This document shows positions 17,523 to 35,161 of a DNA stretch of 64,000 bases, in pieces. The stretch comes from a virus, in IMG/VR virus record IMGVR_UViG_3300042880_000420, positions 32,001 to 96,000 of that record, one strand, 5' to 3'. Under the pieces are notes generated by a model. It saw nothing but the letters and a program-made list of their open reading frames with translations, ran no database searches and was not told where the DNA came from. The position numbers were made by a program, and so were the translations under genes. How positions within the stretch are numbered: position 1 is the stretch's first letter; each line of letters opens with the position of its first letter.

Positions 17523-20500
17523 TTATTTAGTAGTATTAAATACACTATTATACTCTTTATCTAATTTATCTCTTAATTGTTTCTGAGCATAATTTAAATC
17601 TTGAACAGGTGTATATGTTCTTTTTAAAATAGTTGAATTTTCATAAGATTGTGTATTAACGCCTTTTCTTAATGCATCAATAAAATCTTCTACAGTGACT
17701 GTATTAGGCATATCAACAAATGATGTTTCATCATAATTTGTATTTCCAGTATAATCTTTCCAATTATATGTTAAAACATTATTTGTTGGATCTTGCTGTA
17801 CAATTTTATATCCTGCTTTAAATTTAATATTACCAGTTGTAATATCTTTATATATTTCATATTTTAATCCAAAGTCTTCATCTGTCTTTGAAGATTTGAC
17901 TGTTCCATTACTTAATAATAATGAATAAAAATGATCTTGATATGGATTAGGCATTCCAGGAACCATTGCCTCATTTCTAAGTTGAAAAGTTATTTCTCCA
18001 TTAAAAAAATCATACTTTGATCTATCTTTTTTATCAATATTTTTTAATAATTCGTCTTTATTATATGTAAAAGTAATATTTCTTTTTGTAGGATCAGGAC
18101 TTCCCATATTGTGATATTTAAGAGATGTCAATCCAGCAGCAGGATCAGAAACTATTTTTGTGATAAGTTTTTGAAGTTTATCTTGCTGGTCTTCATCATA
18201 TCCAACAATAACATATTTATCATCTTCTATATCTACAATATTATTAATATTTGTAAAAACTTGTTGTGCTATTCTATCTGCGTAATCTGTTCTATCAGTG
18301 GGACTAGACATGTATGTAATTGTCTTGCCCATTTTACCCGTTTCTTCACTGATTGTTTTTTGTAAATTTTCAGGAATAGCACTTTTAAGTAAACCATATC
18401 CTTTATCTAATTTTTTTCTAACTTCCTCAGGCTTTCCATAATCTCTTACAATACCCGTAATGTCATATGTTTGTCCATTTTTATCTGTTGCAGTATAACC
18501 TATAATAACTTTACTTTTTACTGAAATATTTGTTGTTGGTGATGTATATGTAATTTCTTCTTCATATATAGGTTCTGGCTTTAAGGTTCCATTTACATAT
18601 GCTTGTGCAATTTCTAAAGGAAGTTTAACGCGCTTATTATTTACAGTGAATTCACGAATATTACTTAAATTTTCAGCAGTGAATAAAAGACTCTTACCAT
18701 TTTTATCTTTAATGGTAATGTCTTTATATTTTTCAGGATTTTTTTCAACCTGTGCTGCAATTCGTTCATCATATTGCTTTCTTAAAGCATATGCATTATT
18801 TAGTTTATTTCTTGCAGATTGTAATTTAGTGTACGTCTGATAATTTGAATTAATTCTATTTTGTAAACTTGCATCATATTCATTTTTTGCAAGCATATCG
18901 TTTAAATTGTTTATATCCTTTTCAACCGTTTGAGAATAATAATCACTAACTGCTGACAAAGCAACTATTGGACCAGTGAGTTTAACAGGTTTAAGACCTG
19001 CTCCTTCTAATTTAGTATTTAATTTGCTTTCAACATCTTTTAATGTAGTCTGATAATCCTTACTCATTGTACTTGGGTCATTTGCAATTGCAGAAAAAAT
19101 GAACCCAACTTCTTGAGGTGAAATAACATCCTGTAACATATTAATAGGAACACTTTCTAATACAGATTTCATTTCCTGTAATCCAGTGGAATGCATACTA
19201 GTTATTGCAGAATTAAAAGTTTCAACATCTGACTCAATTTTATTTGCATTTGTTGTAGCAGTTACTGTAGGAATTATATTTTTTAAAGCAATTGGTTTTC
19301 CACTTGCATCATATTCTACATTTTCACCACCGCTTTCAATTGATTTTTTTGTTTCTTCCCAATTTTGTTTTCTAACATTAAGAGAATGTGTTTGTGCAAA
19401 TTCTGTTGCTTGACGTTGCTCAGATATATTATTCCAGTATGACTGATCTGTAGTAATTTCTAAAGATTGTTTACTTGCTGCACTCTTAGCAGCAACTTCC
19501 ATATCTTTATCCATTTTAAGATTTGCAAAAAATGCAGTGGGGCTAGTGCTAATTCTTTTTATTATTTCATCATATTTAATTTTATCTTCTTCATTTCCTA
19601 CACCTTTTGTTTTTAACAATGAAGTTTCTTTTTCTAATTCTTTTATTCTTTTATTTATTTCACCACCTTGTGTAATATATTGTGAATATAAATCTTCATT
19701 GCTATTTCTTGCGTTATCTGCATTAGTTTGTGCAATAATACGACTATCTTTTAAATACTTAATTTTATCATCATAACTTTTTATTTGTTGATCAATATGA
19801 TATTTTGGAAGCATAGATATTGCTTCTTCATCAGATATTTCAACACCTTTAAATTTTCTTTCATCATCTTTTATATCTTGAATACCTTGAATTTTAAAAT
19901 ATTCACCGTACATACTATATTGATCATTTGCAGATTCGCCTAAATATGTTTTAAACAAATCAGCAAAAGATTTATATAATCCGTCTCCATTTACTTGTTT
20001 ATAAATACGACCATTTTGCGACCAACTTAATTCTTGTTTCCATTCATTTTTTTTAATCCAATCCTGAAATTCTTTTGGATGATTTTGTAACGGTGTTGCT
20101 TTTATTAAAGGCACTTGATTAATAATATCAGGATCATCTGCTGTTTTAATTTTATTCATATAATAATTCATCACCGTAATAGGTGTATTATTATCATAGT
20201 CAGGATGTTCTTTTTTAATTTTTTCTTGTTCTGCTAATTGAGCATATCTACTTTTTGTATCTGCTATATGAGCTAACATTGTTTTATCCTCCCAAAAAGG
20301 AGAATATAAATTTTCAGCAGAATCTACATTTGATTGGATGGAAAGATCTGTAGTGCTGATTGTTTTTAATTGATCTTTAATTTGATTCAAATAATCATCT
20401 CTTCTTTTGCTATATTTATCATTTAATATTGGTGTATTTAATATACTTTTAAATCCTTGTGAAATTTGTTCATAATTAGTTTCATACCTAGCTGTTGCCT

Positions 20501-20591
20501 TTTGTAAAGCATTTGCTAAGTATGGAAAATTAGGAGTGTATTGTACAGGATTAAAACCGTTATCTGTAACACCAGGCAAATATGTACTCAT
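17523..20591 (-). CDS. Large virion cargo protein of the RNAP gene cluster (1022 aa)
   Basis: Long coiled-coil-rich ORF; first of three large consecutive genes ending in the RNAP, as in crAss-like phages. Function inferred from synteny. Confidence 0.55.
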   Translation of the reverse strand: MSTYLPGVTDNGFNPVQYTPNFPYLANALQKATARYETNYEQISQGFKSILNTPILNDKYSKRRDDYLNQIKDQLKTISTTDLSIQSNVDSAENLYSPFWEDKTMLAHIADTKSRYAQLAEQEKIKKEHPDYDNNTPITVMNYYMNKIKTADDPDIINQVPLIKATPLQNHPKEFQDWIKKNEWKQELSWSQNGRIYKQVNGDGLYKSFADLFKTYLGESANDQYSMYGEYFKIQGIQDIKDDERKFKGVEISDEEAISMLPKYHIDQQIKSYDDKIKYLKDSRIIAQTNADNARNSNEDLYSQYITQGGEINKRIKELEKETSLLKTKGVGNEEDKIKYDEIIKRISTSPTAFFANLKMDKDMEVAAKSAASKQSLEITTDQSYWNNISEQRQATEFAQTHSLNVRKQNWEETKKSIESGGENVEYDASGKPIALKNIIPTVTATTNANKIESDVETFNSAITSMHSTGLQEMKSVLESVPINMLQDVISPQEVGFIFSAIANDPSTMSKDYQTTLKDVESKLNTKLEGAGLKPVKLTGPIVALSAVSDYYSQTVEKDINNLNDMLAKNEYDASLQNRINSNYQTYTKLQSARNKLNNAYALRKQYDERIAAQVEKNPEKYKDITIKDKNGKSLLFTAENLSNIREFTVNNKRVKLPLEIAQAYVNGTLKPEPIYEEEITYTSPTTNISVKSKVIIGYTATDKNGQTYDITGIVRDYGKPEEVRKKLDKGYGLLKSAIPENLQKTISEETGKMGKTITYMSSPTDRTDYADRIAQQVFTNINNIVDIEDDKYVIVGYDEDQQDKLQKLITKIVSDPAAGLTSLKYHNMGSPDPTKRNITFTYNKDELLKNIDKKDRSKYDFFNGEITFQLRNEAMVPGMPNPYQDHFYSLLLSNGTVKSSKTDEDFGLKYEIYKDITTGNIKFKAGYKIVQQDPTNNVLTYNWKDYTGNTNYDETSFVDMPNTVTVEDFIDALRKGVNTQSYENSTILKRTYTPVQDLNYAQKQLRDKLDKEYNSVFNTTK

Positions 20592-20658: not shown

Positions 20659-22713
20659 TTATACTTGATTTCTAGACTTTCTCCTTCTTGTTTGGTCATT
20701 CGTCATTCCTTGTTGCATTTTCATATAATCTAGATAATCACTTACACTCATATCAGCATCTTTTGCTGCTTGTGCAATATCTTTTGCACTCATTTTTTCT
20801 GTATCAGATTGACTATTAAAAAATGCCTGCATAGATTTAGGACTATGAAAATATATAGTTCCAGTTCCAGGTCTAACACCATAATAAGGACTTTCAGTCA
20901 AACTCGTATTATAAAGATTAGCTGCATTTCTTTGACCTTGTGTATAAGCTTGCAAAACACCTGTACGTGCTTGTCTCATTGCATTTTGATATTGTTGTTC
21001 ATTAATTACACCAGCATCATATAAACGTTTAGTACGTTGTGCATCATATGCTATTTGTTTATTAGTAATATCAGCTGCTTGACTAGCTGCTGCATTTCCT
21101 AATTGAACATTTAAATTAGATGTTTTTCCAATGGCATTTGCTACACTAGCAAGTTCTTGACCAACAGGAACTGTTCCTAAATTTTGTTTTCCTGCAAACA
21201 TGTTACGTGCTTGTCTATTTGAATTTGCTATTTCATTAATAGCAGCTAATTCTCTAGCTGAATCATAATATCTTGTTTCAGGTCTTTGAAATTTAACAGT
21301 AGGTTCAAAAGGTGTAAATCTTCTTACACCAGTTAAATTTTTAAGTGAATTTAAAAGAATTGCATTATCAGGATTTGTCCAACCATATTTAATTGGAGAT
21401 CTATTATATGTCGTTATATCATTATTTTTAATTTTACTTTCATTATCAAAATTAAAAGTATAAGGATTATTTTTTAAATAATTATGTAATAATACATTAG
21501 AACCAATAAGATTACCATCTTTATCAGTAAATTTACTTTTTTGTTTTTCTTCATCTGAAAACAAACTAGCATTTTGAAGTCTATTTATTCCTTGTTGATT
21601 TTGTTCTAAAGCCGTTTGATAATCAAAAGATTTTGTAAAATCAGGAACATCAGATTGTGGAATTGTTAATTCGTATGGATTTTTCTTACTATTAATTTTT
21701 GAAGATAGATTAATTCCATTAGTTATGTTATCACTTTCCACCTCACTTCCTTCTTCATCACCAATATATCTTTTTAAATTCATACCACCATATTTCATTC
21801 TACCACCATACATCATATCACCACCATACATTGCTTCCTGTGGGTTTTCTTCCATTTGTTCTTGAGATTCAACATCAGAAGCTTGCATCATCTTTGCATA
21901 ATATTCTTGTGCAATATTGGGAATACCTTGCGGATATCCTTTCTTACCTTCTTGTACAAGAGCAAGTTGTGCTAATTTCTTATTATAATTTTGAATCATC
22001 AGCTCTGCTGTACGTTTCTTAATAGAATCAGCTCTAGGATCTTCAAGTATAGCTTTATATTTATTAAGATCATATTGTTTAGCTATTTGTGCCGGAGTAA
22101 ATTTTTTAGATGATTTTTCAGACTTACCAAATACGCTAAGAACAGAACCACCAAGTTTCATCTTCTTTGTATCAGAAAAAATAAATGTACCTTCAGGAAC
22201 ATTTAATGGTACACCACCTTGCGTATGTCTTTTACCTTTTATATTGTAATGACTTTTAGTTCCATCTTCTTTTGGAATTACAGCAGTTTCACCACCTTCT
22301 GCTTCAATATTTGCATGCTCTCTTGGAACAGCAGACAACGTATTATTAACATCTAACTCTTCATCAGTATCTTGATTCATCCAAAGTCTTCTAGAACCAA
22401 GATCTAATCCATATCCCATTTGACCACCATAAGCAGCAGTTTGCATATCATATCCCATATTAGAATTTTGGTCTTGTGATTCAACACCTTGCAATTCTTG
22501 ATACATTTGCATAATGGTTTGTTTTTGTTCTTCTTCTCCCATTTGTTGAAGTTGTTGAACAATTTGTTGTGCATCAACACCATTAGCTTCAGCAAATGCT
22601 TGTATAACTTGCATAATTTGCTCTTGAGGATTACCACTTTGTTGTTGCATTGTCATATCTCCACCATCTTGATATTTAGCAGGATACTTTTTTATTTTGA
22701 CTTTGTATTTCAT
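20659..22713 (-). CDS. Putative cargo protein with xxxGG-delimited segments (684 aa)
   Basis: Core ANIEAEGGET...KGKRHTQGGVPLNVPEGTFIFSD; motifs YQDGG, AAYGG, AMYGG, MMYGG, MKYGG; lies between the muzzle and RNAP genes. Confidence 0.55.
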   Translation of the reverse strand: MKYKVKIKKYPAKYQDGGDMTMQQQSGNPQEQIMQVIQAFAEANGVDAQQIVQQLQQMGEEEQKQTIMQMYQELQGVESQDQNSNMGYDMQTAAYGGQMGYGLDLGSRRLWMNQDTDEELDVNNTLSAVPREHANIEAEGGETAVIPKEDGTKSHYNIKGKRHTQGGVPLNVPEGTFIFSDTKKMKLGGSVLSVFGKSEKSSKKFTPAQIAKQYDLNKYKAILEDPRADSIKKRTAELMIQNYNKKLAQLALVQEGKKGYPQGIPNIAQEYYAKMMQASDVESQEQMEENPQEAMYGGDMMYGGRMKYGGMNLKRYIGDEEGSEVESDNITNGINLSSKINSKKNPYELTIPQSDVPDFTKSFDYQTALEQNQQGINRLQNASLFSDEEKQKSKFTDKDGNLIGSNVLLHNYLKNNPYTFNFDNESKIKNNDITTYNRSPIKYGWTNPDNAILLNSLKNLTGVRRFTPFEPTVKFQRPETRYYDSARELAAINEIANSNRQARNMFAGKQNLGTVPVGQELASVANAIGKTSNLNVQLGNAAASQAADITNKQIAYDAQRTKRLYDAGVINEQQYQNAMRQARTGVLQAYTQGQRNAANLYNTSLTESPYYGVRPGTGTIYFHSPKSMQAFFNSQSDTEKMSAKDIAQAAKDADMSVSDYLDYMKMQQGMTNDQTRRRKSRNQV

Positions 22714-22723
22714 TATTGTAAAT

Positions 22724-25207
22724 TTAATCTAAAAATTCTAACTGACCACCAGCTTTTAAAAATTGTTGAATTTGATCTTCATCCATTTCTACCACCTGTC
22801 CACCAAGTTGTTCTCCACCGTTTTTAAAAACACCAGCTTGCTGTAGTTTTTTATACATTTTAGCAGATTCACTTTTTACTTGTCTTTTAAGAAGTTCTCT
22901 TCTTTGTGCTAAAGTTATTTGTTTTAAAGTTTTATTTCTTAATTCTGGATATATTTCTACACCATAACCTTTACTATTAATTGTACCATCTTTATTAACA
23001 CCACCACTCCATTTCTTTAAAGCATAATTTATATCTGTGTTAGGTTCATAATATTTACTATCAAATATTCCATCCACTTCACCAAACATTAAAGTTTCTC
23101 TAGCATTAAGTCCTGCTTCCAATGTAGGAAAAGCTGCAAAATATCCGGGACCATCTGTTTGTTTAATCGGAGATTTTACTGCTCCAAATTTTGAAAACAC
23201 AGGATTATAAATAATATTACCTGGATTATTAAGTTTTGTTGCAACATCTTTTTCATTAGGATTGGGAATACTAGGCCCAGCAGAATAATTTCTAGTTGGT
23301 CTAACAACTGCTCTTGTATTATCTATAGTTTTTGTATCATTTACAATTGGTTTAGAAATTTTAACATAATCTTTTAGAGAAACAACAATGGGCATGTTTT
23401 TCATAAGTTCAAGTGGACTACTAATTGGAGCAGCTAATTGTGGACTTGCAAATAAATTGCTAAATCCACCACCAACTTGATAACTAGGAACTTCCATACC
23501 ATACTTACCGTACATACCTTTATAAGAAAATGTACCTGTATTATAAGGTTTAAATGCACCATATGTAGAACCTGTTACACCATAATCACCTTTACTAGAA
23601 CCTTGAGGATTTGTAAACATAGCTGCTGTACTACCCATATTCATAGCAGCAGCATCCATATTTCTTTTTCTATTTCTTTCGTTTAATACATTACCAATAG
23701 TACCAGCAAGTTCTACACCAGTTTGCATTGTATTTGCAATTTTACCAGCAGTTCTACCAAACTTCTGTATATCTGTTTGACCTGTTCTAAATCTAGCACC
23801 TTTTCCTTCTTCTTTAAGTTGTTCCCAAAGTTCAGGATCTTGTTTCTTTATGTTAGTTAATTGTTTATTATCTTTAGACCATGTAGTAAAACCTGTATTT
23901 GGATCTACCGCATTACTGTATTGACTTGAATCAAAAGGTTCAATATTTTGTTGTTCTTCATCATACTGCTCTTCATCCATATTTAATCCACCAAGGTCAG
24001 GACTTTCATATAATTCATTTCTTCTATTTCTCCTACTACCGTTTACTCCGTCACCATATATTCCAGATTCTTGATTTTCATCTTCAATATCATATTGGAA
24101 ATTTGTATCAATGTTGTACGAACCATCGCCAGAAGCAGACCAAGATTGTCCAGCAGAAACATCTACAGGACTACCTGATGTGGGAGGTGTAGATGATGTT
24201 ACTGTAGAACCTTCTTGAAAATAATATCCACTACCTGGTACATATGTACCAGAGTCTGTATTTCTATGAAACTTACCATCCATTCCATAATACCCACCTT
24301 TTTTAAACATAGTTCTCATTGCGGGAAATATAGCAGTACCACCTTTTTCATACATGCCTCCACATTCATAACAAGGTTGACCACCTTGTTTCATTTTAGA
24401 AACATAATTAATAAGCTCGTTATTTTGTGTAGCACTACCCGTATAATTTTTTAAACCATATGATTCAGCAAGTTTTTTTCTTTCTGCAAATGAACTGTCT
24501 TTACCTTTTGATTTTAATAAATCAACAATGCTTGAATACTTATTTAATGGTGTAGAATAAGATGCACCAATAGCCCCCACTTCACGCATTGTTTGTGCGG
24601 GAGACATTGTAGATTGCAATGTTTTAGCAGCACCAAAATCTTTTAAAGGTACAGTTTGTAAATTATTCTTAATTAATTCTTTAGGAAGATTATAATTATT
24701 TACAATAGGTGCTAAAACTTTAAGAGGTTGCAATGTTTTACTTCTATCTATATAAGGAGTATTAGCTGCCATTCCAGGTCTTGACCACATACCAGTAGAT
24801 GTTTGCCATCCTGTGGTAGGTTGATTGCTTGCATATCCTTCAAAATCAGGATTGATATATCCGCCAGGTTCATTTACAGTAGGTATTTTATCAAAAGTTT
24901 CAACCATTGGACCAATAGCTCTACCCATTCTGTCAAATGATCTAGGTCTTTTAAAAGTACCAGATTCATCACGTACCATTGGTTGTAGTTGTGGAGTATA
25001 ATTAATCATACCTACATTTCCTTGTGTATTAACTCCAACTCTATTACGTAAATTTTCAGGAATTTCTACATTTATTCCATTTTGTGCTTCCATTAATTCA
25101 CCACACATATCGGGGTAGTCTGAACAAAAAGATGCTTGATCAGGATATTGATTATAAAAATCATCTTCTGATAATCCTGTTAATTCTAAAATACTTTGTT
25201 TATTCAT
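22724..25207 (-). CDS. Modular cargo protein with DUF3597-like cell-wall-binding module and lysozyme-like NNPGNI domain (827 aa)
   Basis: SIVDLLKSKGKDSSFAERKKLAESYGLKNYTGSATQN (DUF3597-like); KLNNPGNI...GYFAAFPTLEAGLNA...INYALKKW (phage virion lysozyme-like); repeated xxxGG motifs. Confidence 0.55.
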   Translation of the reverse strand: MNKQSILELTGLSEDDFYNQYPDQASFCSDYPDMCGELMEAQNGINVEIPENLRNRVGVNTQGNVGMINYTPQLQPMVRDESGTFKRPRSFDRMGRAIGPMVETFDKIPTVNEPGGYINPDFEGYASNQPTTGWQTSTGMWSRPGMAANTPYIDRSKTLQPLKVLAPIVNNYNLPKELIKNNLQTVPLKDFGAAKTLQSTMSPAQTMREVGAIGASYSTPLNKYSSIVDLLKSKGKDSSFAERKKLAESYGLKNYTGSATQNNELINYVSKMKQGGQPCYECGGMYEKGGTAIFPAMRTMFKKGGYYGMDGKFHRNTDSGTYVPGSGYYFQEGSTVTSSTPPTSGSPVDVSAGQSWSASGDGSYNIDTNFQYDIEDENQESGIYGDGVNGSRRNRRNELYESPDLGGLNMDEEQYDEEQQNIEPFDSSQYSNAVDPNTGFTTWSKDNKQLTNIKKQDPELWEQLKEEGKGARFRTGQTDIQKFGRTAGKIANTMQTGVELAGTIGNVLNERNRKRNMDAAAMNMGSTAAMFTNPQGSSKGDYGVTGSTYGAFKPYNTGTFSYKGMYGKYGMEVPSYQVGGGFSNLFASPQLAAPISSPLELMKNMPIVVSLKDYVKISKPIVNDTKTIDNTRAVVRPTRNYSAGPSIPNPNEKDVATKLNNPGNIIYNPVFSKFGAVKSPIKQTDGPGYFAAFPTLEAGLNARETLMFGEVDGIFDSKYYEPNTDINYALKKWSGGVNKDGTINSKGYGVEIYPELRNKTLKQITLAQRRELLKRQVKSESAKMYKKLQQAGVFKNGGEQLGGQVVEMDEDQIQQFLKAGGQLEFLD

Positions 25208-25247
25208 ATTATAAACTTTTAAAGTTTAATTATTTTATATTAAACTA

Positions 25248-25285
25248 TATATTATTAATTTACTTAATTTTATTGAGATGTCCTA
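25248..25285 (-). promoter_or_regulatory. Putative late promoter
   Basis: TAG-N20-TAAATTAATAATATA upstream of 25207. Confidence 0.4.
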
Positions 25286-28200
25286 ATTTTTAAGATATTC
25301 TAACCAATTTTTATTATCTTTCTTAACAATAGGATTTAATGTAGATTGACCACCTATTGCAAACGTTTGTCCACCTTCTTCCCAAGTACCAAATCTTTTA
25401 TGCCAGTATAAAGGACTAAATGGATCTGTTGCTTTAGAACTGTTTTTACCACCCATTCTATTCCAGAAGTTTTCTCTTCTTTGTTCAGAATGGTGTTGTT
25501 TAAAATCTTGCATTCCTTTATATCCACCATGTACTACTTTATAATCATCACCTTTTTTAGCTAACACCATCCATTTTTTACCTGGTCTTGTACTTTGTTT
25601 TTTTGCACCTACACTAGTAAAGCCCATGTTTCTATATCTTTCTGGAATACCACCACCTTCAGCATAATTTGTATCTATAAAACTATTACCTCCTCTTGGT
25701 GCATAATGATGCTCACCTATATAATTTTGATCAACAACCCCTTCACTATCACCCATAAATTCTTGTCTTATAAAATTACCTTTTCTATCATATATATCTA
25801 CAGGATAAGTTCTTGGCTGTATTAAATTTGTTAAATTTACAGTTTGTTTTGGAGAAATTGGAAGTAATTCAGCACGTGTTACAATTTTAGGGTTAATTAA
25901 AGTAGGTGCTACCATTTCTAATCTTTTTAAATTAGTTTTTGGATGCACAAAAGTATTTATATTTGCAAATATAGGTAAATGATTATTATATTTATCTACA
26001 TGATTAGGATCAATACCTATCATAGTAGGATATTTTTTTTTCATATTATTCCAATAATTTATATCCACATCATTTTGTAACCACATTTTAGGTTTAGTTT
26101 GTCCTCCTGGTCCATACATAGAAATACCACCATATTCCATTTCTTCTATTGGAAGTTCCATCATTCCTTTAGTTTCAGGATTATACATCATATAATCAGA
26201 TACTGAATTTGCATAATCATCTACCATAGTAAGTTTAGAACTAACCCATGGTTCTAAATCAGAATTTGGTTGAATAAACTTACGAAGATTAGTTAGTTTA
26301 TTAATAGCAGCATCAATTTGACCAATAGCCATTTCACCATCAGGTTCCCCTCCACTACCATACATAGGAACATTCCCACCATTTTTATAATTCATACCAT
26401 ACATATCATTAGCTGCACGTTTATATCCTTTAGCCGCAAAATAATCAGCTATATCTTCTGTTGGAGTTTTAATATATTCTTGTCTTTGATCAGGTTGATA
26501 TATTAGTTGTCCAGGTGCTGTTCTTAACATAGTTGAATTATTTCTTAATGGATTAGAAAATGTTTCTATAATAGTAGGAGATACATAATTATCTCCAAAC
26601 CCCATTAATAAAGTAGACATATCATTACTATTAGGATTTTCTCCATCAATATATTTTGTAGGAATACCATTTTGATTACCAAATCCAGCAGCACGTTGCA
26701 TAAAATTTTTATCTTGATTTCTTTGTAATAAAACTTTAGAAATAGCATCCATGCTTGGATCATTTACCATAGGTTTTTTTGTTCTCCAATAAACTTCTTC
26801 TTCACCTCCATCTTGATAATGACTTTTAATTTTTCTTTCTTGATCCAACATTTGTTTTGTTGGTACTTTACCAGATCCTCTGTTATCCCTGATATTATCC
26901 CATAATCCACGTTTAGAATATGAACCATCTGCACGTTTAATCATTTCTCCACCTTGTTCTTTTTTAGGATAATATATTCTATTATATATTGAATACGGCA
27001 TACCTTTTGTTCTTTTTTGAGCAAAATCTTTTAAATCATATCTATCATAATATGATAAGTAATCCCCTTGTTTATCACGACCTCTACTAACACCAAATCT
27101 ACCTAATAAACCAGCTCCATCTTTTCCACTTATAGGGGTTTCAATTTCTGATTCATCCGTTTGTAAAATTTCTTTAAGTTTTACTTTATCTTTATACGAA
27201 TTAAATATATCTTGTTCAAGCTGAGGATCTACAGTATAATAATTTTTATCTACAGCATTAATTGTTGGTATATATTTAGATTTTTTTAAATACTTTAATT
27301 CATCTGGTGTACTTAAACCTAAATAAAATTTAAATGCTTCTTCACTTCTGGGGTCATAAGATTCCTCCCTTTGTTCATCCGAAACCCATCTTCCATAATT
27401 GCGTAAATCAAGATAACTAGAAGGATTAATTGTACGATAGGCTTTTTGTCTTTGAGGTAATGTTTCAGCAGGAAATGTTCTACTATTATAATTATTATAA
27501 GCATCTACATATGCTTTTTTTAAATTAGAAATAAACCCTCCTCCTCCTTGCATCATAGGATACTCTGTAACTGGAGCTTGGTTAAATGTATAATCACCTT
27601 CAGGTTGCATCATAATTTCTTGACCATCTGCACCAACTCCTAACACTGGATAGTTTACATCACGCATTGTAATATTAGGACTATCAATTTGTGTCACTTT
27701 ACCTGGATGAGCCCATTGTCCTCTGTTGTCTTTTATTACCCCACCTTCTCTCATCTTAATATCACCACCACATTTATGACATGTCATAGGTTCCATTCCA
27801 CCATCAGATAATTTCCATGACCAACCACAATTAGAACATGTTACTTTTCTATTTAGTGAATTTTTTGATACTAATCCACCATTTTTTCTTGAATCAATTA
27901 TTGTTTCAGCACCTAATGTTCCTAACAATCCTCTATTAAAATTAACTCCTCTCATTATTACAGGATTTGTAGCTTGATTAACATAAGGAGTTAAATGAAT
28001 ATATTCTCCACTTCTATTTCCTAAATTTGCTATTTTATTAGCATATGAACCTGGAGTTGTATTCCACATATCTCTTTTATATCCATAATTTTCAATAACT
28101 TTTGGTAAAAAAGCAGATGCAAAATTAATACCAGCACTTCCATAATTACCTTCTGCTACATCCATACCACCTTGAAATGCATCAATACCAGTACCTAAAA

Positions 28201-28525
28201 CATTTCCCCATTTTCCTACAAGTTGAGCTTGCGGGATAGGTATAAAATTACCTACCTGCATTATATCAGTTAATATATCAGCTCCTTTTACTGCTGATTT
28301 TACATTTTTTTTTAATGCATATGCTTTTCTATCTGCTTCACTAAGTGCTCTTCTTCCTGGAGTATCAGCATATCTATCTTCATTAAAAGAATAATACTTT
28401 GGTTGAGGAAGTCTGTTGCGAAACATTTCCTCTTCTGAAATAACTAAAGGCTTCCTATATGATGTATTATCTGATATAGGTACTACTTGTCTTCCATCTT
28501 GATATTTATCTAACCACTTTTTCAT
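25283..28525 (-). CDS. Modular polyprotein-like virion protein (1080 aa)
   Basis: About 12 xxxGG motifs separate unrelated small modules: CxxC/CxxC zinc ribbon, GLWDNIR basic module, EMA..Q/LEPWVSSKLT helical module, DUF5754-like module. Confidence 0.55.
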   Translation of the reverse strand: MKKWLDKYQDGRQVVPISDNTSYRKPLVISEEEMFRNRLPQPKYYSFNEDRYADTPGRRALSEADRKAYALKKNVKSAVKGADILTDIMQVGNFIPIPQAQLVGKWGNVLGTGIDAFQGGMDVAEGNYGSAGINFASAFLPKVIENYGYKRDMWNTTPGSYANKIANLGNRSGEYIHLTPYVNQATNPVIMRGVNFNRGLLGTLGAETIIDSRKNGGLVSKNSLNRKVTCSNCGWSWKLSDGGMEPMTCHKCGGDIKMREGGVIKDNRGQWAHPGKVTQIDSPNITMRDVNYPVLGVGADGQEIMMQPEGDYTFNQAPVTEYPMMQGGGGFISNLKKAYVDAYNNYNSRTFPAETLPQRQKAYRTINPSSYLDLRNYGRWVSDEQREESYDPRSEEAFKFYLGLSTPDELKYLKKSKYIPTINAVDKNYYTVDPQLEQDIFNSYKDKVKLKEILQTDESEIETPISGKDGAGLLGRFGVSRGRDKQGDYLSYYDRYDLKDFAQKRTKGMPYSIYNRIYYPKKEQGGEMIKRADGSYSKRGLWDNIRDNRGSGKVPTKQMLDQERKIKSHYQDGGEEEVYWRTKKPMVNDPSMDAISKVLLQRNQDKNFMQRAAGFGNQNGIPTKYIDGENPNSNDMSTLLMGFGDNYVSPTIIETFSNPLRNNSTMLRTAPGQLIYQPDQRQEYIKTPTEDIADYFAAKGYKRAANDMYGMNYKNGGNVPMYGSGGEPDGEMAIGQIDAAINKLTNLRKFIQPNSDLEPWVSSKLTMVDDYANSVSDYMMYNPETKGMMELPIEEMEYGGISMYGPGGQTKPKMWLQNDVDINYWNNMKKKYPTMIGIDPNHVDKYNNHLPIFANINTFVHPKTNLKRLEMVAPTLINPKIVTRAELLPISPKQTVNLTNLIQPRTYPVDIYDRKGNFIRQEFMGDSEGVVDQNYIGEHHYAPRGGNSFIDTNYAEGGGIPERYRNMGFTSVGAKKQSTRPGKKWMVLAKKGDDYKVVHGGYKGMQDFKQHHSEQRRENFWNRMGGKNSSKATDPFSPLYWHKRFGTWEEGGQTFAIGGQSTLNPIVKKDNKNWLEYLKN

Positions 28526-28531
28526 TTACTA

Positions 28532-31500
28532 TTATTTTTGAGATATTTGAAGTTTTGTATTAATAAATTTGAATATCATTTTAATATCCCCTCTTCCATC
28601 TACACCTTCTTTTCTTATTTCTGGAGGATTCTTTCTAAGAAGCACCTTGCTTACATTGTGTCTAAATTTCTTTTTCTGTGTAGACGACTTATAATAATCT
28701 ACACTAAAAGGATTTACAAACCAGTTATATCCATTAGGAAATGTTGTTGTAAGAATATTTTCGACACCACTAAATTCTCCTCTGTCTTTTGTAATATCAT
28801 TAAACTGATTAAATCTATATTTTTGTTCTTCTTTAGAGAATAATATTTCTGTAGATCCTGTAGGATTAATTATTGGATAATTAAGATATTGGAAAGGATT
28901 AGACTTAGATTTTAAATTAAGATTAAGCAATCCAGATATTTGTTCTGAGTTATAAACAATAGCTGAATCAAAGTTATAATCTAATAAATGAAACTTATCT
29001 TGTCCATTAGCACTATACTTATATGCTTCTAAATAATATTCTACATTACGCATTGTAGTAACAGTAGTTCCTGTTGGAAATGCATATTCTATTTCAAATG
29101 GATGATAGGTACCATAAAAATTACAAAAATCATCCCATCTGTCGTTATGTCTCCACAATCCAGTTTGTGTTTGAAAACAAGTTTTATATGCTGTATAAAA
29201 ATGTCTCTTAGAAGGAAGCATAAATGTAGGATGCCAATCATGAAAACTAATCCATTGTTTATTCTTTACATCATAAGAAATAGTCCAAGATGCATCTTCA
29301 AAATATGCAGGGTCACATAATGAAATAGGAATTTTAGAAAAAACACTAACAGGAGGAAGTATTTCTGTGTTATATTCTAAAGATTCTGTTAATGTATATA
29401 CACACACAGGTTCTTCCACACCATATGTATATTCTAAAACACCAGCACCTGAACAAGTATATTCATAATCTATAAATTCAGATTTATCATTTGTTGTAAA
29501 TATTACATTAAGATCAGAAAATGAAGTTGCATTTAATATTTCAAATTGTGTATTATCTATTAATGCAGCACCAAATCCTTCATAGGAGCCCTCAAGCTTT
29601 AATGTGTTGTTAACTTCAGTTATCTGTATAGGATAGATATGAAGATATGTATTAGATACATCATCACCAGATGAACCCGGAAGTCTACTATCAGCATTCA
29701 TTGCAGCAAGATCTGGATCTAATATTACCTGACCATTTAATGTAATTCTAAAATTAGTATATGCTGTAGTAGGGTCTACACTATAAGAACATATTGCAAC
29801 ATAATAAATCTTTTCATTAGGTACATTATTCAAATAAATATTATATGTAATTGTATCATTAGGAATACCAGATGTAGCTGTTGTCTTAATCATTAGATAG
29901 TTTACAGGTCCATCTGAAGATGTTCCTGTATCATTAATCCAAAAATTATTAAGTTGTCCAATATTAGTGTATGTACCAACAGCTGAACCATTATATCCAA
30001 GATCATACAATGCAGTTCCTAATGTGCCATATGTTACACTTCCTAAAGGTTCTGTAGAATAATTAGTTGTAGATATTACAGGTGGCTCTGTTGTAACTTG
30101 TTGACATTGACCATTTATATACTGATATCCAGGAGGACAGTCATATGTATATAATGGCTCTACATTAACATTTATATTTCCATTATTTAAATAAAATCCA
30201 AATGCAGGATCGTATTGTATATCATTACGTTTTGGTATATAGTCTCTTTTAGAAAAATATACCACCTCATTAATATTGTCATATACAGTTGTTATACCAG
30301 CACCAATAACAGGATTATCACTTAAATTAAAATTAGGAAAATAATTAATAAGTTGTAAAGGAAGATATCTGCTAAACCACCATTTCATATTTGATTTAGA
30401 AATTTCTTCAAGTTGTCCCGTGTATGCAAAAATCTTACCTTGGTCTTGACTTACATAGAATACACCATAAGGTGTAGATGTAATACCCCATCTGCTTTGA
30501 CATGAACCATATTCATATATTTGGTCTGAATTAACAAGACTCTGTAAAGGTTGATTAAATAATCCTCCATCTCCAATTGTTACTTTAATTCCTGTATCTG
30601 TTTGTAAACTATCAACACCCATAATTTGCATTGGGGATTGTCTATCTAACATTATTAAAGCACCTGTTTTATTTATTTGTTTTACAGAAGTAACTTTAGT
30701 AGGCATGTCTTTATAGTTATTAACTAAAAAACTTTGCCAATTATCACGTTTAAGTTCTTCTTGTTGCGGTAAAGAATATTGAATTCTTCTTGGATAATAA
30801 GTGTAACATGTAGCCGCTACAAGTGGATTAAATGAACGTGGTAAAACTTGACCCCATGTAACAAATTGATTATACATTCTAGATACAGAAAGAGAATAAT
30901 CATACTTATAAAATGCTGAAAATTTTACATAATCGCTTCTAAATAATGTAACAAGGTCTGTGTATCCATAAGGATCATAAAATCTTTTGCTTGCTTCATC
31001 TTCCCAATCTCTATATCCAACATTCACTTCAGATTCTACAAAAAAATCTCTTACACCATTGCAAAATAAATAAAAGTTAGCAGCATCTACTTTCCAACCA
31101 GGATCGCCATTATAATCTTTACCAACAATAGTACCTCCTTTGTTAAGTCTATAATATTTTTTAGGGCTTATTAAAATAGAATTGTCCACATATTGTTTTC
31201 TATTATCTACAAAATAATATGTACCGACAATATTTTGATATTGTAAATAGTTATATGTAACATCTTCCGGTTGTTCAATAAGCCAATCATTAAAATATAA
31301 ATAATTATTTTTCTCTGTGTACCGGTTTAAATATATGTCACCACCGAATAATATTGGTACTTCATTTATTGTATATACACAACTAGAAATGGGAATTTGT
31401 CTAATAGAATCAATCTGCCCATACTGCGATGCAAAATCTACTTTAATTGCACCATAATTAGATGATATTGTTCTTGTAAAACAATCCCCATTTACACCTA

Positions 31501-33922
31501 ATATATTTTTAGAATCATCTACAATACCAGGATTAGGCATTGCTGAATTTAATTTCATAATTATATATGGATTTCTATATAAATTATTTACAGAAAGTCC
31601 GTCAAATGATTGCACACTATCTTTTATATATCCATAATCAGATGTTGAAATTGTACTTGTTGTTGGGTTAAATGAGTTGTAAAATCCATGTGAATTAAAC
31701 TGTGCGGCTAATTGCTCAGGTCCAATTAATGATGTAACAAGTTCTGCTAATTTTTGTCCATTTGCTTTTAATCCTACAGCAATTTGCCATGCGGCTGTTA
31801 TCACTGTATTTGCAAAAATTCTAGCAATATATGATGCATTTCCAAATGTGTCTGGAGCTGAACCTATATTTACACCTAGTGTTAAATTATAAGGCATATC
31901 TGAATTACCTTGAACAGTAATTGGTTCAGCACCTAAAGCAGCACTAAGAGTTTGAAATGCAGCTACTGTAATTGCAAAAATATTAACTAAATCAGCACTA
32001 CGTTGACCAAGCAATTTAAATTCCGGATGTTTATATGGAGCAGAATAACATCCAGACATTTGCCCATATGTATATCCATATATTCTTAAATTAAATGCAC
32101 CTATGTATGGATTTTGAAATGTTGTGTCTGGTGAATGAAATGTTGCATAATTTGTTAATGCAGTCATTCCAACAGCACTTTCATAAAATGGATCTATTGT
32201 ACTAATATCATTATAAGGATAGTTTTGCATTAAAACTTGTTGTCCTGTAGGATTGCTTGTTTTAGCATCTATAATATTGTATATCTCCATGTTGTTAACC
32301 ATACCTTTGGCAATAACAGACTTATATCCTTCTCTTGAACCCCTTAATATTTCATATCCAACTATTGAATCTATTATATTTCCATTAATATCTTTAGGAG
32401 CTGTAATACCTTCAAATGATACACCAAGCACTCTAATCTTACCACCACCATTTGTAAAATGATTATCCAATGCATTATCAGGAAACTTATGATGTCTTAT
32501 ATTTTTTCCACATAAATCAAATGAACCATTACCTGTACTGTTAGGTTGATTCCATACAACAGGATTATCATCAGGATATTTTTCTGTAGATTGCCAATAT
32601 CCCATATATCCTGTTTTAACTAAAATACCACCATCGAGTTGTAACAAATTGGGAGATGCAGTAATTGTTGCAGTGTTTTTAGTTTGCCAGTTGGTATCGT
32701 TTATACCACTGTAATTAATAGGTCTACCGGGAATATGATAAGATGCAGATCTATCCCCAGTATTATATATCCATCTTATAAAAAATGAATACACCTCATC
32801 TCTCATGTATCCAACATTAGAACCAGCTTTATGATAATAATCTTCAGGATATTCTACGGAATTCCACTTTGAAATAATTTTATTAGCTTGTGGTTGATAG
32901 TTAAAATCAGGTTTTGTATATATACCTGTTCTTAATAAATAATTTTGTAAAGGATAAATTCCATCTGATTTTTCTATAGCAGGTGTTATAAGTGGTAAAT
33001 TAGCTATTGGTACAGTTACTAAACTAGGATCTAAACTATCAATATAAATAACAGATTGTCTTGTTGAATATACACCTAATTGTTTTGCTACTGTTTGTGA
33101 ATTGACAATAGAAATTACAACCACCTCCATTTCAGTAAAGTCCGGATCTGTATTAGATACACTCAGCTTAATAGCTCCACCTACACCACTATGACTCCAT
33201 ATAGATACAGGATTAGAAACCATAAGATAGTCCGTCACTTTGATTTGATTAATCATATAAGCAATAGCCACTTGATATGTACCATTTTGTAATGTTCCAG
33301 ACCCACTTCCTTTTTCAACTCGTAAACATGGTGTGTTTAATAATGGAGCAAGTCTTAATTGTTCACAATTTAATTGTGTAGTGTCTGTACATGTAACACA
33401 ACCTGTAGGAGAACCTGCTGGCCAAATTCCTGGAGGATTTGATATGCTGACATTGTTATCATCAACGCAAACTTGTTTCCAAGGAATATTATTAATATCC
33501 ATCACTCTATCTGGATTATTTCCATCAGACCAATATATTTTTTCTGAACAGTCAAATGTTCTTCTTGAAGCCCCTGTTATTAAATGCTTGGTATTAAAAC
33601 TTAAACAATCATCATTAACCAATGTTGTATAGGTGCAAGTTAATTCATTAAAAATACCTATCTCAGAATTAACATCATTTGTAGTAAATATTGCCCATCT
33701 ATTTTCGTCTAAAGAAATACAACCAATTAATGTATATGGAAGATTAACACAAAAAAGATTGGAAGGTTCATTACCTACTACGCCAACCTGACCATCATGA
33801 GAATTATTAACTAAATTCCTAGCATGTGTCCATTGCCCTTCGCCAATAAAAGTATCATTAGGATCTTTAAGCATCCCTTTGGTAAACGAATTCAGTTGAT
33901 TTGGTGTTTCTTTATTTGCCAT
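28532..33922 (-). CDS. Tail stabilisation / muzzle protein (crAss-like, P22 gp10-related)
   Basis: N-terminal SFTKGMLKD...ARNL...VGNEPSN, GYMRDEVYSFFIRW, RHHKFPD and SWTISYD...WISFHDWHP beta-propeller-type segments; position after the ring proteins. Confidence 0.75.
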   Translation of the reverse strand: MANKETPNQLNSFTKGMLKDPNDTFIGEGQWTHARNLVNNSHDGQVGVVGNEPSNLFCVNLPYTLIGCISLDENRWAIFTTNDVNSEIGIFNELTCTYTTLVNDDCLSFNTKHLITGASRRTFDCSEKIYWSDGNNPDRVMDINNIPWKQVCVDDNNVSISNPPGIWPAGSPTGCVTCTDTTQLNCEQLRLAPLLNTPCLRVEKGSGSGTLQNGTYQVAIAYMINQIKVTDYLMVSNPVSIWSHSGVGGAIKLSVSNTDPDFTEMEVVVISIVNSQTVAKQLGVYSTRQSVIYIDSLDPSLVTVPIANLPLITPAIEKSDGIYPLQNYLLRTGIYTKPDFNYQPQANKIISKWNSVEYPEDYYHKAGSNVGYMRDEVYSFFIRWIYNTGDRSASYHIPGRPINYSGINDTNWQTKNTATITASPNLLQLDGGILVKTGYMGYWQSTEKYPDDNPVVWNQPNSTGNGSFDLCGKNIRHHKFPDNALDNHFTNGGGKIRVLGVSFEGITAPKDINGNIIDSIVGYEILRGSREGYKSVIAKGMVNNMEIYNIIDAKTSNPTGQQVLMQNYPYNDISTIDPFYESAVGMTALTNYATFHSPDTTFQNPYIGAFNLRIYGYTYGQMSGCYSAPYKHPEFKLLGQRSADLVNIFAITVAAFQTLSAALGAEPITVQGNSDMPYNLTLGVNIGSAPDTFGNASYIARIFANTVITAAWQIAVGLKANGQKLAELVTSLIGPEQLAAQFNSHGFYNSFNPTTSTISTSDYGYIKDSVQSFDGLSVNNLYRNPYIIMKLNSAMPNPGIVDDSKNILGVNGDCFTRTISSNYGAIKVDFASQYGQIDSIRQIPISSCVYTINEVPILFGGDIYLNRYTEKNNYLYFNDWLIEQPEDVTYNYLQYQNIVGTYYFVDNRKQYVDNSILISPKKYYRLNKGGTIVGKDYNGDPGWKVDAANFYLFCNGVRDFFVESEVNVGYRDWEDEASKRFYDPYGYTDLVTLFRSDYVKFSAFYKYDYSLSVSRMYNQFVTWGQVLPRSFNPLVAATCYTYYPRRIQYSLPQQEELKRDNWQSFLVNNYKDMPTKVTSVKQINKTGALIMLDRQSPMQIMGVDSLQTDTGIKVTIGDGGLFNQPLQSLVNSDQIYEYGSCQSRWGITSTPYGVFYVSQDQGKIFAYTGQLEEISKSNMKWWFSRYLPLQLINYFPNFNLSDNPVIGAGITTVYDNINEVVYFSKRDYIPKRNDIQYDPAFGFYLNNGNINVNVEPLYTYDCPPGYQYINGQCQQVTTEPPVISTTNYSTEPLGSVTYGTLGTALYDLGYNGSAVGTYTNIGQLNNFWINDTGTSSDGPVNYLMIKTTATSGIPNDTITYNIYLNNVPNEKIYYVAICSYSVDPTTAYTNFRITLNGQVILDPDLAAMNADSRLPGSSGDDVSNTYLHIYPIQITEVNNTLKLEGSYEGFGAALIDNTQFEILNATSFSDLNVIFTTNDKSEFIDYEYTCSGAGVLEYTYGVEEPVCVYTLTESLEYNTEILPPVSVFSKIPISLCDPAYFEDASWTISYDVKNKQWISFHDWHPTFMLPSKRHFYTAYKTCFQTQTGLWRHNDRWDDFCNFYGTYHPFEIEYAFPTGTTVTTMRNVEYYLEAYKYSANGQDKFHLLDYNFDSAIVYNSEQISGLLNLNLKSKSNPFQYLNYPIINPTGSTEILFSKEEQKYRFNQFNDITKDRGEFSGVENILTTTFPNGYNWFVNPFSVDYYKSSTQKKKFRHNVSKVLLRKNPPEIRKEGVDGRGDIKMIFKFINTKLQISQK

Positions 33923-33923
33923 C

Positions 33924-34277
33924 TTACTTAATTTCTAATTTCTTTTTTTTAATAAAAGAATATGCTTGTTCAGTAAGAAAATCACATAGCCAAGCTTGTG
34001 TTTCTTCATCTACAACATCTCTGTCTTCTGTTATTCTAACTGCAGCATGATAAATTTCGTGTGCAATTGTGTTATGTGAAAGATATTTCTGTTCTATAAT
34101 TAAATAATAAGACTCCATTTCAGCACTAATCAATATTCCTTCTAATTCATAATCATTATTTGAAGTAACATTATATTTTTTGTAAACCTTATCTACTTCT
34201 TTTTTTATATTATCAGAAATAATAAATTGTAATTTACAATTAAATGTTTCAATATTTATTATCTTTTTAACTATCAT
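33924..34277 (-). CDS. Small zincin-like metallopeptidase (HExxH)
   Basis: TIAHEIYHAA...DEETQAWL: HExxH plus a downstream Glu. Confidence 0.6.
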   Translation of the reverse strand: MIVKKIINIETFNCKLQFIISDNIKKEVDKVYKKYNVTSNNDYELEGILISAEMESYYLIIEQKYLSHNTIAHEIYHAAVRITEDRDVVDEETQAWLCDFLTEQAYSFIKKKKLEIK

Positions 34278-35161
34278 TACAAATTTATATAATATGATTT
34301 AAACATATTGTAATACTTACCGTACATTGCTTCTCTGTTCATTTTCCAAACATTATACATTTCTTTAAAGTCAGGAGTATTTACAATAGTGAGAGCATTG
34401 TTTCTTGCAGGTCTCATTCTTTGTTCAACCAATTGCATTCTTTGTGTAACATCTTCACCATTCATGTATAGATTTTCAAGAATACGTTGTTTAATCGCAT
34501 ATTCATAATATTCATTAATCATAGGATGATCTAATACAAGAAGATTACCATTCTCATCTTCTAAGTTACCCAAATAGTTTACATACACGGTACCTGTTTC
34601 AATTCCTATAACGTATAAATATCCATCTCTGAGTTCTGCTTCCATCCAATTGTCATATTCTGGTTTCTTAGAACATATAGGATCTACTGCTCTAGCAGGT
34701 CTTACCCAAAGTCTCTTAAACTCTCTAAATTCTCTTGTTAAATAATTTCTTTTTTCTATAACTTTTACATAAGTGTCTTCACACACTACATAAGTACTTT
34801 CACAAGCACATGTAGATTCAGGTTCTTTGCAAGTATTACAACATGTTGCTGTTGGTTCTACTATAACATTTTCTGTATGTCTTCCTTGCATCACTTCTTC
34901 TTTTACATGATAGTCAGCACAAAGAACAGCCATAGTAAGTACATAAAAATCATCTGGAAGTTTAACTCTACCGTTTATGATTTCTAAAACTTTTTGTTTT
35001 TCAGTGTTAATTCTAAGTCCAAGATCATAATTAATTCTTTGTGCAACTTTAATAAGTTGACCAGGCTCAATCATACCTTCAATTTCATAAGTGAAAAAGT
35101 CAGTGCGTACCTCATCCATTAACTCATCAAATGTTCTATATTTTACAAATGTGTTTGCCAT
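34277..35161 (-). CDS. Tail ring / tail tubular protein (P22 gp4-like)
   Basis: LEIINGRVKLPDDF...VYVNYLGNLEDENGNLLVLDHP...YEYAIKQR; position just upstream of the muzzle as in crAss-like phages. Confidence 0.6.
   Translation of the reverse strand: MANTFVKYRTFDELMDEVRTDFFTYEIEGMIEPGQLIKVAQRINYDLGLRINTEKQKVLEIINGRVKLPDDFYVLTMAVLCADYHVKEEVMQGRHTENVIVEPTATCCNTCKEPESTCACESTYVVCEDTYVKVIEKRNYLTREFREFKRLWVRPARAVDPICSKKPEYDNWMEAELRDGYLYVIGIETGTVYVNYLGNLEDENGNLLVLDHPMINEYYEYAIKQRILENLYMNGEDVTQRMQLVEQRMRPARNNALTIVNTPDFKEMYNVWKMNREAMYGKYYNMFKSYYINL

Follow-up and report, generated by a model that had tools for sequence, protein, structure and literature searches.

No phages are more abundant in the human gut than those of the Crassvirales, which are also common in water. 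The way in which these viruses load a protein cargo of ~5 MDa and drive it out through the tail has yet to be explained (PMC10172136). In crAss001 the muzzle gene is followed by the genes of cargo proteins C1 (gp45) and C2 (gp46), and further on by those of polymerase-associated proteins; all of these proteins have been detected in virions (PMC10172136). The same slot is filled by three open reading frames (ORFs) in a 64,000-nucleotide (nt) stretch of IMG/VR record IMGVR_UViG_3300042880_000420, the 109-kb record of an uncultured crAss-like phage that is estimated to be 91% complete; the whole stretch is called the window here, and all coordinates are window positions. The three ORFs, of 1080, 827 and 684 amino acids (aa; P0001, P0002 and P0003), lie downstream of the muzzle gene and upstream of a putative C2 gene and the RNA-polymerase-associated genes, and their products are most likely carried in the particle and injected. 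They are punctuated by a short peptide, [YFMW]-x-x-G-G, hereafter the seam. This junction and leader peptide of the first-ejected crassvirus cargo is real, is constrained at the protein level and marks the points at which cassettes are exchanged.

The closest described counterpart is C1 of crAss001 (gp45; Bayfield et al. 2023, PMC10172136; PDB 7QOG), which likewise sits between the muzzle gene and C2 and has a basic N-terminal leader ending F-D-T-G-G (gp45 starts MAKKKIKRRGKMPPNIFDTGG, and its DAC15 homologue gp59 starts MAKRKHNKRVVPIVIEDSNQYLLGG). Aromatic-GG peptides flank both gp45 segments seen in the virion: MFAYGG (558–563) lies just past the modelled portal-bound domain (425–552), and the other ordered segment, 214–245, begins four residues past SAYGG (206–210). 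Homology between gp45 and the C1 proteins of other gut crassviruses also breaks next to GG sites, at 264, 329, 369–372 and 425–427. The portal-bound chain (7qog_M, 425–552) aligns weakly with the folded domain of P0003 (116–263; VIA-align Z 5.6, rmsd 4.1, 93/126 residues, 18% identity), and a Foldseek search with the whole P0003 model gave no match to the gp45 fold. Unlike the window phage, crAss001 has one gene in place of three, its motif is weaker (3 strict motifs vs 1.4 expected), and there is no sequence-level match between gp45 and the window proteins: hhalign, a domain HMM with hmmsearch and a PDB profile search did not link P0003 to gp45, and no Pfam C1 match was obtained at E up to 10. 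The assignment to C1 is thus drawn from gene position and a weak fold hint.

Large, packaged and injected proteins with many small exchangeable domains, including peptidoglycan-degrading ones, have been described as polyvalent proteins (Iyer et al. 2017, PMC5512222), and P0001–P0003 share this trait, as they hold many unrelated small domains in architectures that are shuffled among relatives. The work on polyvalent proteins reports no common junction peptide, however, and predicts their processing via embedded zincin domains (PMC5512222), whereas no peptidase domain and no embedded zincin was found in P0001–P0003. A second likeness is to the capsid targeting sequence of T4 and the prohead proteolysis of SPN3US and phiKZ, where packaged proteins have a short conserved N-terminal leader in common and ejected proteins carry a short recurring motif; leaders of this kind are present here as MKYKVKIxKQPKYQxGG and MKKWLDKYQxGG. 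In those phages Glu is the last residue of the motifs (LxE, AxE), and a known S77-type protease cuts them (PMC7411985). The seam, in contrast, ends in Gly-Gly and has up to 11 copies within one protein, and the search for a prohead protease was negative. Gly-Gly-directed processing of viral polyproteins is carried out by the adenovirus protease and by pS273R of African swine fever virus, whose sites, like the seam, have a hydrophobic residue a few positions before Gly-Gly and specificity upstream only. Unlike these sites, the seam has its hydrophobic residue one position further from Gly-Gly, and the window phage is without a clan CE protease. Double-glycine leader peptides are paired with a C39 peptidase, and PF03412, which matched in control genomes, has no match in the window genome.

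All large ORFs of the window are on the minus strand, and the three cargo genes are arranged as follows.

25283..28525, minus strand: cargo gene 1, P0001, 1080 aa, the first gene past the muzzle gene, with 11 strict motifs
22724..25207, minus strand: cargo gene 2, P0002, 827 aa, with six strict motifs
20659..22713, minus strand: cargo gene 3, P0003, 684 aa, C1 (gp45)-like, with four strict motifs and 1373 homologues

Given the residue composition of each ORF (20,000 shuffles per ORF), 1.45 strict motifs would be expected in P0001, 1.21 in P0002 and 0.46 in P0003, and the observed counts or higher were reached in 0, 15 and 22 of the 20,000 shuffles, respectively. Y, F, M or W stands at −3 in 21 of the 41 GG dipeptides of the three proteins vs 12 of 91 in the other 97 ORFs of the genome (background frequency 0.126); the muzzle protein has one motif and the 1022-aa protein on the other flank has none. 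The enrichment is therefore real and confined to the three cargo genes. A preliminary description of the window had listed motif strings in these ORFs, every one of which is present in the translations, and had called the pattern not evident in the flanking proteins, which these counts confirm.

The pattern extends well beyond the window. In 17 related IMG/VR loci one to three post-muzzle ORFs are likewise enriched (16 motifs vs 2.5 expected in L005), and the ring, muzzle and later genes are not. In 80 further loci, 53 distinct ORFs that hold a DUF5754 domain carry 504 motifs vs 73 expected, and homologues of P0003 carry 461 vs 75. The C1 homologues of cultured gut crassviruses other than crAss001 show the weaker form as well (DAC15 gp59, 5 vs 1.1; p-crAssphage gp47, 3 vs 0.7, from BK010471), while C2 homologues have no motif in crAss001 gp46 and p-crAssphage gp46 and one vs 0.3 expected in DAC15 gp60. 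Seam dialects vary by clade, with [YF][QK]xGG in the window phage, [HY]AMGG in L008 and [FY]MPGG in L005 and L007. Conserved positions lie solely upstream of GG, from −5 to −1 (M/Y/F/H at −3, Q/K/A at −2, Y at −1, K/R/P at −4 and −5), and the residues downstream are little conserved. The polymerase-associated cargo proteins of the window phage are also modular and are without the motif, so the seam is not a general by-product of modularity. The pattern is widespread and apparently undescribed: literature searches for the motif in crassviruses found no description, and the portion of the crAss001 paper searched (PMC10172136) does not mention it.

Cassettes have been gained, lost and rearranged in evolution precisely at the seams. 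P0001 consists of a leader, ~10 cassettes and a C-terminal tail.

28490..28525, minus strand: N-terminal leader MKKWLDKYQDGR with a degenerate seam (GR for GG); homologues have MKKWLDKY[QA]xGG
27875..27889, minus strand: seam RKNGG (213–217), closing the 200-aa first cassette; absent in L001
27767..27844, minus strand: Zn-ribbon mini-module CxxC...CxxC (228–253), with weak IBR/zinc-ribbon-type matches only
27740..27754, minus strand: seam MREGG (258–262), left limit of the block shared with L002 and insert site in L001
27539..27556, minus strand: seam MMQGGG (324–329)
26948..26962, minus strand: relaxed seam KEQGG (522–526), before the EMIKRADGSYSKRGLWDNIR module
26804..26818, minus strand: seam YQDGG (570–574), right limit of the L002 block and also the end of a BLAST match to L005
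26348..26389, minus strand: tandem seams YKNGG (713–717) and YGSGG (722–726)
26102..26140, minus strand: tandem seams MEYGG (796–800) and YGPGG (804–808)
25652..25666, minus strand: seam YAEGG (954–958), before the DUF5754 cassette
25385..25651, minus strand: DUF5754 cassette (959–1047), Pfam PF19058, found at varied positions across cargo proteins
25349..25384, minus strand: seams WEEGG (1048–1052) and FAIGG (1055–1059)
25286..25348, minus strand: seam-less conserved C-terminal tail QSTLNPIVKKDNKNWLEYLKN, which also ends dozens of homologues

The modules of P0001 thus comprise the Zn-ribbon, the EMIKRADGSYSKRGLWDNIR module (which also begins some stand-alone or short proteins), several unnamed ones and DUF5754, to which its homologues add Glucosaminidase, Amidase_2, SLT, YkuD, LysM, Phage_lysozyme2, DUF3597 and PF19197. 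When BLAST high-scoring segment pairs (HSPs) of at least 60% identity were taken between cargo proteins of different build, 54–55% of the internal break points fell within 10 residues of a motif vs 15–16% of random positions, and HSP ends peaked 0–2 residues past the second Gly at ~10 times the null, effect sizes that are approximate given that protein pairs are not independent and that the motif itself helps an HSP to reach it. An earlier version of this test with all HSPs was noisy and gave roughly twofold enrichment.

Individual alignments show the same behaviour. Residue 14 of P0003, the Y of YQDGG, pairs with residue 302 of P0005 and residue 289 of P0013; both of these are the tyrosine of a second YQxGG, behind an additional module of 275–290 aa. 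Residues 258–574 of P0001 (MREGG to YQDGG) match residues 551–876 of L002 (FKKGG to YQEGG) at 83% identity, with nothing alignable beyond. The closest relative, L001, opens MKKWLDKYAEGG and passes directly to the Zn-ribbon module, so that the 200-aa cassette between KYQDGR and RKNGG of the window P0001 is absent, and it has a 365-aa insert between MREGG and NKYGG. The DUF5754 block is shared from seam to seam with L005, L007 and L008 at very different positions in the protein. Among 101 copies of this module that are 85–100% identical, x-x-GG precedes the domain in 45 of the 45 listed, whatever lies upstream; a strict scripted test found it in 63 of 101, the misses among those listed being one-residue offsets, and W-E/Q-x-G-G follows the domain in 101 of 101. 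In an independent set of 64 DUF5754 copies the terminal W is followed by xxGG in 58, by a stop in six and by nothing else.

The placement of motifs at module boundaries and near termini that the preliminary description had reported is accordingly borne out, as is its view of the proteins as strings of modules punctuated by the motif, and gain and loss of modules in homologues happens exactly there. Exceptions are found in both directions: the left edge of an exchanged C-terminal domain in P0002 (~residue 659) has no motif, so not every boundary has one, and HTQGG (163) and MKLGG (185) of P0003 lie inside a folded domain and are not seams. Since modules are exchanged at the motif and DUF5754 is also found stand-alone, the system is expandable, as had been proposed. 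Codon use at the seams is ordinary, with GGT at 0.63/0.45 and GGA at 0.33/0.40 vs 0.53 and 0.36 for the remaining 2196 Gly codons in those genes, and every GGN pair is represented, which places the selection on the peptide and not on the DNA.

The ends of the proteins complete a plan of leader-GG, (module-GG) repeated and seam-less tail that is conserved and restricted to these genes. Most P0003 homologues start MKYKV[KR]Ix K-Q-P-[KR]-Y-Q-x-G-G and continue past the GG with different modules or directly with MAYGGQMG, and many P0001 homologues start MKKWLDKYQxGG or MGWLKKYQxGG; KYQDGG and MKYKVKILKQPKYQDGG are examples of the seam or leader peptide. In L054, where the W of DUF5754 is the last residue that one cargo gene encodes, the next gene opens MKNKKSISSIFQQGG. 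The conserved tails are of two types, Q..NP[IV]VKKDNRNWLEYLKN (P0001 type) and ..E[ML]EVTPEQ.E.LR.QGY.FEII (P0002 type), and NWLEYL of the former resembles KWLDKY of the leader, the aromatic half being kept without the GG.

In the reading that we tentatively prefer and consider quite possible, the seam is left uncut and has two roles, those of a flexible joint and of a docking or address peptide. The three genes would encode virion ejection cargo on one plan: a short basic leader ending aromatic-x-x-Gly-Gly is followed by a variable number of independently folding cassettes, each with a trailing [Y/F/M/W]-x-x-G-G seam, and by a conserved tail without one. Seams would stay uncut in the virion, and as flexible joints would allow the chain to be kept and released like a string of beads. 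In addition they would be short linear docking or address peptides, ordered only on binding the particle interior (portal, tail barrel or assembly scaffold), such that any module bringing a seam would be loaded and ejected, and the three proteins together would correspond to crAss001 C1 split over three genes. The structural basis for this reading comes from P0003.

22660..22713, minus strand: N-terminal leader MKYKVKIKKYPAKYQDGG, kept in most homologues, which diverge after the GG
22423..22437, minus strand: seam AAYGG (93–97), before the portal-binding-like domain; disordered in the monomer model
21874..22347, minus strand: beta-plus-helix folded domain (123–280), probably portal-binding, with HTQGG and MKLGG inside
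21784..21834, minus strand: seam cluster AMYGG, MMYGG and MKYGG (294–310), behind the folded domain; disordered in the model

An AlphaFold2 model of P0003 built with 120 homologues (mean pLDDT 66.7) has a helical module (28–76), the beta-plus-helix domain and a helical C-terminal part. Residues 1–27, 77–122 and 281–363, which hold the leader, AAYGG and the AMYGG/MMYGG/MKYGG cluster, have a pLDDT below 50. Residues Y95, G96, G97, Q98, G100, L103, D104 and G106 are nonetheless nearly invariant, and F/MKYGG is kept across the family. Such near-invariance without intramolecular structure suggests a binding interface in the AAYGG stretch, a pattern in the model that is typical of a peptide folding on a partner. 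This AAYGG is a true seam by comparative criteria and occupies the same position as the joint of gp45 that reads A425-F-G427-G428-W429, across whose G428–W429 bond the modelled chain is continuous. Because the chain is modelled from 425 through the GG, the joint before the portal-binding domain is intact in the mature virion. A multivalent docking tag, the other possibility raised in the preliminary description, would fit these data better than cutting at GG.

Several points weigh against a docking joint, whose binding partner is hypothetical. No structure shows a strict [YFMW]xxGG seam contacting anything. The intact joint is a single one in one distant relative, with its aromatic residue at −1 and not −3, and the link from P0003 to gp45 combines gene position with a weak fold match (Z 5.6) that sequence profiles do not connect. 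Finally, upstream-only conservation and a leader ending in GG have the look of a protease site with its propeptide.

The last of these points belongs to a serious rival, if a rather unlikely one, in which seams are cleavage sites and cargo polyproteins would be cut after Gly-Gly, in the prohead or, the form to be taken most seriously, after injection, by an unrecognised phage or host protease, with the leader as a cleaved targeting propeptide. That the information is solely on the non-prime side of GG, that each cassette has a trailing seam and the leader ends in one, and that tandem seams 6–9 residues apart are common would all suit a protease, as would modules such as DUF5754 that stand alone elsewhere and the terminal copies that need no xxGG. 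Motif-directed cutting of ejected head proteins has precedents: T4 removes its capsid targeting sequence, and SPN3US processes ejected proteins at AxE (PMC7411985). Self-processing is predicted for polyvalent proteins (PMC5512222). The size of gp45 in virions is not given in the text or supplements of Shkoporov 2018 or Bayfield 2023, and the published crAss001 mass spectrometry, which lists no fragment sizes and no peptides across a seam, would be compatible with cleavage of other seams or with cleavage that follows injection.

The preliminary description had proposed such polyproteins cut at GG, which the evidence does not support. In the 91%-complete genome the clan CE families PF00770 (C5-type/adenain) and PF02902 (C48/Ulp1) have no match at E up to 10, and with C39 and the prohead proteases S77 and S78 (T4-type PF03420, HK97-type PF04586) equally without a match, the known Gly-Gly-specific and prohead proteases are rejected as cutters encoded there. 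Pfam scans of 20 further virion-module ORFs and of three large polymerase-associated or C2-like proteins revealed no peptidase. Among 276 cargo proteins there is no C-terminus five residues or fewer from a motif, the AFGG|W joint of gp45 is intact in the virion model, and HTQGG and MKLGG are found inside a folded domain. One candidate protease, also named in that description, is encoded next door.

33924-34277, minus strand: 117-aa HExxH protein between the ring-1 and muzzle genes

This family, of ~115–125 aa, comprises at least 195 representative clusters, and in 86 aligned homologues H73, E74 and H77 are invariant and E92 nearly so. The protein may be a small or minimal metallopeptidase: its model (pLDDT 96.5) runs beta-hairpin, helix, beta-hairpin, HExxH helix, Glu helix, and the ESM Atlas gave a weak Peptidase_M78 lead (0.89), while Foldseek and VIA-align found no convincing or zincin match to the model, the best hits being RsfS-like proteins (Z 5.4). 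The family profile, which recovers its positive controls, detects the protein in L001, L002 and L004 and has no match in five further relatives with seams, of which three are complete genomes with terminal repeats. A protein missing from complete relatives that keep the motif cannot be the general seam reader, and it was rejected as general seam protease or reader on this ground and on the lack of a zincin match.

A broader variant, which we regard as doubtful, is that the seam is a universal crassvirus cargo code with an unknown reader, by which modules are loaded and the string is cut at the seams after injection to release effectors and cell-wall enzymes. If true, the cargo would be a plug-in effector delivery system, and the view of crAss001 in which a single gp45 chain runs through the portal would need to be re-read.

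It is improbable that the seam is a passive linker without any reader, in which the aromatic would be the last core residue of a module and x-x-G-G a flexible stop or hinge, so that only recombinants breaking there survive. Terminal DUF5754 copies do stop exactly at the W with no xxGG, seams are disordered in the P0003 model and the x-x positions are variable, as this would predict. However, unrelated modules would not all need an aromatic exactly three residues before GG, leaders have the full motif without a module in front, tandem seams have almost nothing between them, and the equally modular RNA-polymerase-associated cargo is without the motif. Very unlikely, in turn, is a role as aromatic ‘stickers’ with flexible spacers by which the cargo self-associates into a condensate captured in the procapsid; the motifs are multivalent, often tandem and lie in disordered Q/N/G-rich stretches, but neither a fixed aromatic-GG spacing nor strict placement at cassette borders would be needed. 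That a recombination signal in the DNA drives cassette exchange and leaves the motif as its footprint, with which the coincidence of break points and motif would agree, is hardly credible and was rejected because seam Gly codon use matches that elsewhere, all GGN pairs are used, and the codons of x-x and of the aromatic are variable, so that too little of the DNA is fixed.

Whichever way it is read, the seam is a concrete handle on cargo loading. It is specific to the cargo that is ejected first, and the phages that have it range from freshwater ones to crAss001, DAC15 and p-crAssphage. It predicts where chains bend, dock or are cut, explains how cargo proteins gain modules, peptidoglycan hydrolases included, and has a role that is testable in cultured phages. 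Should the preferred reading hold and the seam be an address tag, it could find laboratory use in the packaging of foreign proteins in phage particles.

The second cargo protein, P0002, has the following parts.

24398..24580, minus strand: DUF3597-like, peptidoglycan-binding-like module (210–270), also with PHROG endolysin/peptidase family matches
24293..24394, minus strand: seam cluster MKQGG, YECGG, YEKGG and FKKGG (272–305), directly past the DUF3597-like module
23468..23482, minus strand: seam YQVGG (576–580)
22814..22828, minus strand: seam FKNGG (794–798), at which homology to L001 resumes exactly, past a swapped domain
22727..22813, minus strand: C-terminal tail of the ..VEMDEDQIQQFLKAGGQLEFLD type; many homologues end E[ML]EVTPEQxExLRxQGYxFEII

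The family matches of residues 210–270 suggest peptidoglycan binding, and cargo modules of cell-wall enzyme types fit proteins that leave the particle first and act on the envelope of the cell, a role that has been proposed for gp45 (PMC10172136). The C-terminal domain of P0002 (NNPGNI motif, residues ~640–790; 22724-23300, minus strand) is swapped in the 90%-identical L001 orthologue, where an unrelated domain of ~270 aa takes its place.

The genes around the cargo block are as follows.

55793-57436, minus strand: Crassvirus major capsid protein gene, by Pfam
34277-35161 and 35164-35856, minus strand: tail ring protein 1 and 2 genes, by Pfam
28532..33922, minus strand: muzzle protein gene, by Pfam crAss_MUZ (E 1e-21); motif not enriched
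17523..20591, minus strand: 1022-aa protein gene, 0 motifs, possibly C2 (gp46)-like

A tblastn search with P0001 and P0003 against GenBank phages gave no match. The 1022-aa protein is possibly cargo protein C2, given its position and an N-terminus (MSTYLPGVTDNGFNPVQYTPNFPYL...) that, compared by eye, resembles those of crAss001 gp46, DAC15 gp60 and p-crAssphage gp46. Giant proteins are encoded past this ORF, the largest with ART and helicase domains.

The DUF5754 module has also been met outside this cargo. Stand-alone proteins of 91 and 108 aa (L059 3022-3297 and L098 7995-8321), without leader or seam and ending exactly ...HKRF[GK]TW, are encoded on phage contigs that are not crAss-like in look. 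The domain further matches an internal part of the 1393-aa portal-fusion protein annotated ‘portal protein’ in Aphanizomenon phage CL131 (L023 1402-5583), and the C-terminal 53 residues of the capsid protease GP125 of Vibrio phage ICP1 (L022 2386-3222; 43% identity, ...FSPLYW...). Because prohead proteases are believed to be directed into the prohead by their C-termini (PMC7411985), the match to the ICP1 protease makes DUF5754 a candidate that may act as a head-interior targeting module.

Two minor observations concern the peptides themselves. p-crAssphage KP06_gp45 (L104 13246-18375), whose annotation is that of an RNA-polymerase-associated protein with a fused zincin protease, starts with MDVLKFLQGG. 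This leader is of the MKKWLDKYQxGG type, and the protein is otherwise seam-free. In several relatives (P0124–P0243) a mini-module of 8–10 residues, [ST][TF]WSGN[TA]W, stands directly before [YF]-x-x-GG, as in GGSTWSGNTWYKSGG.

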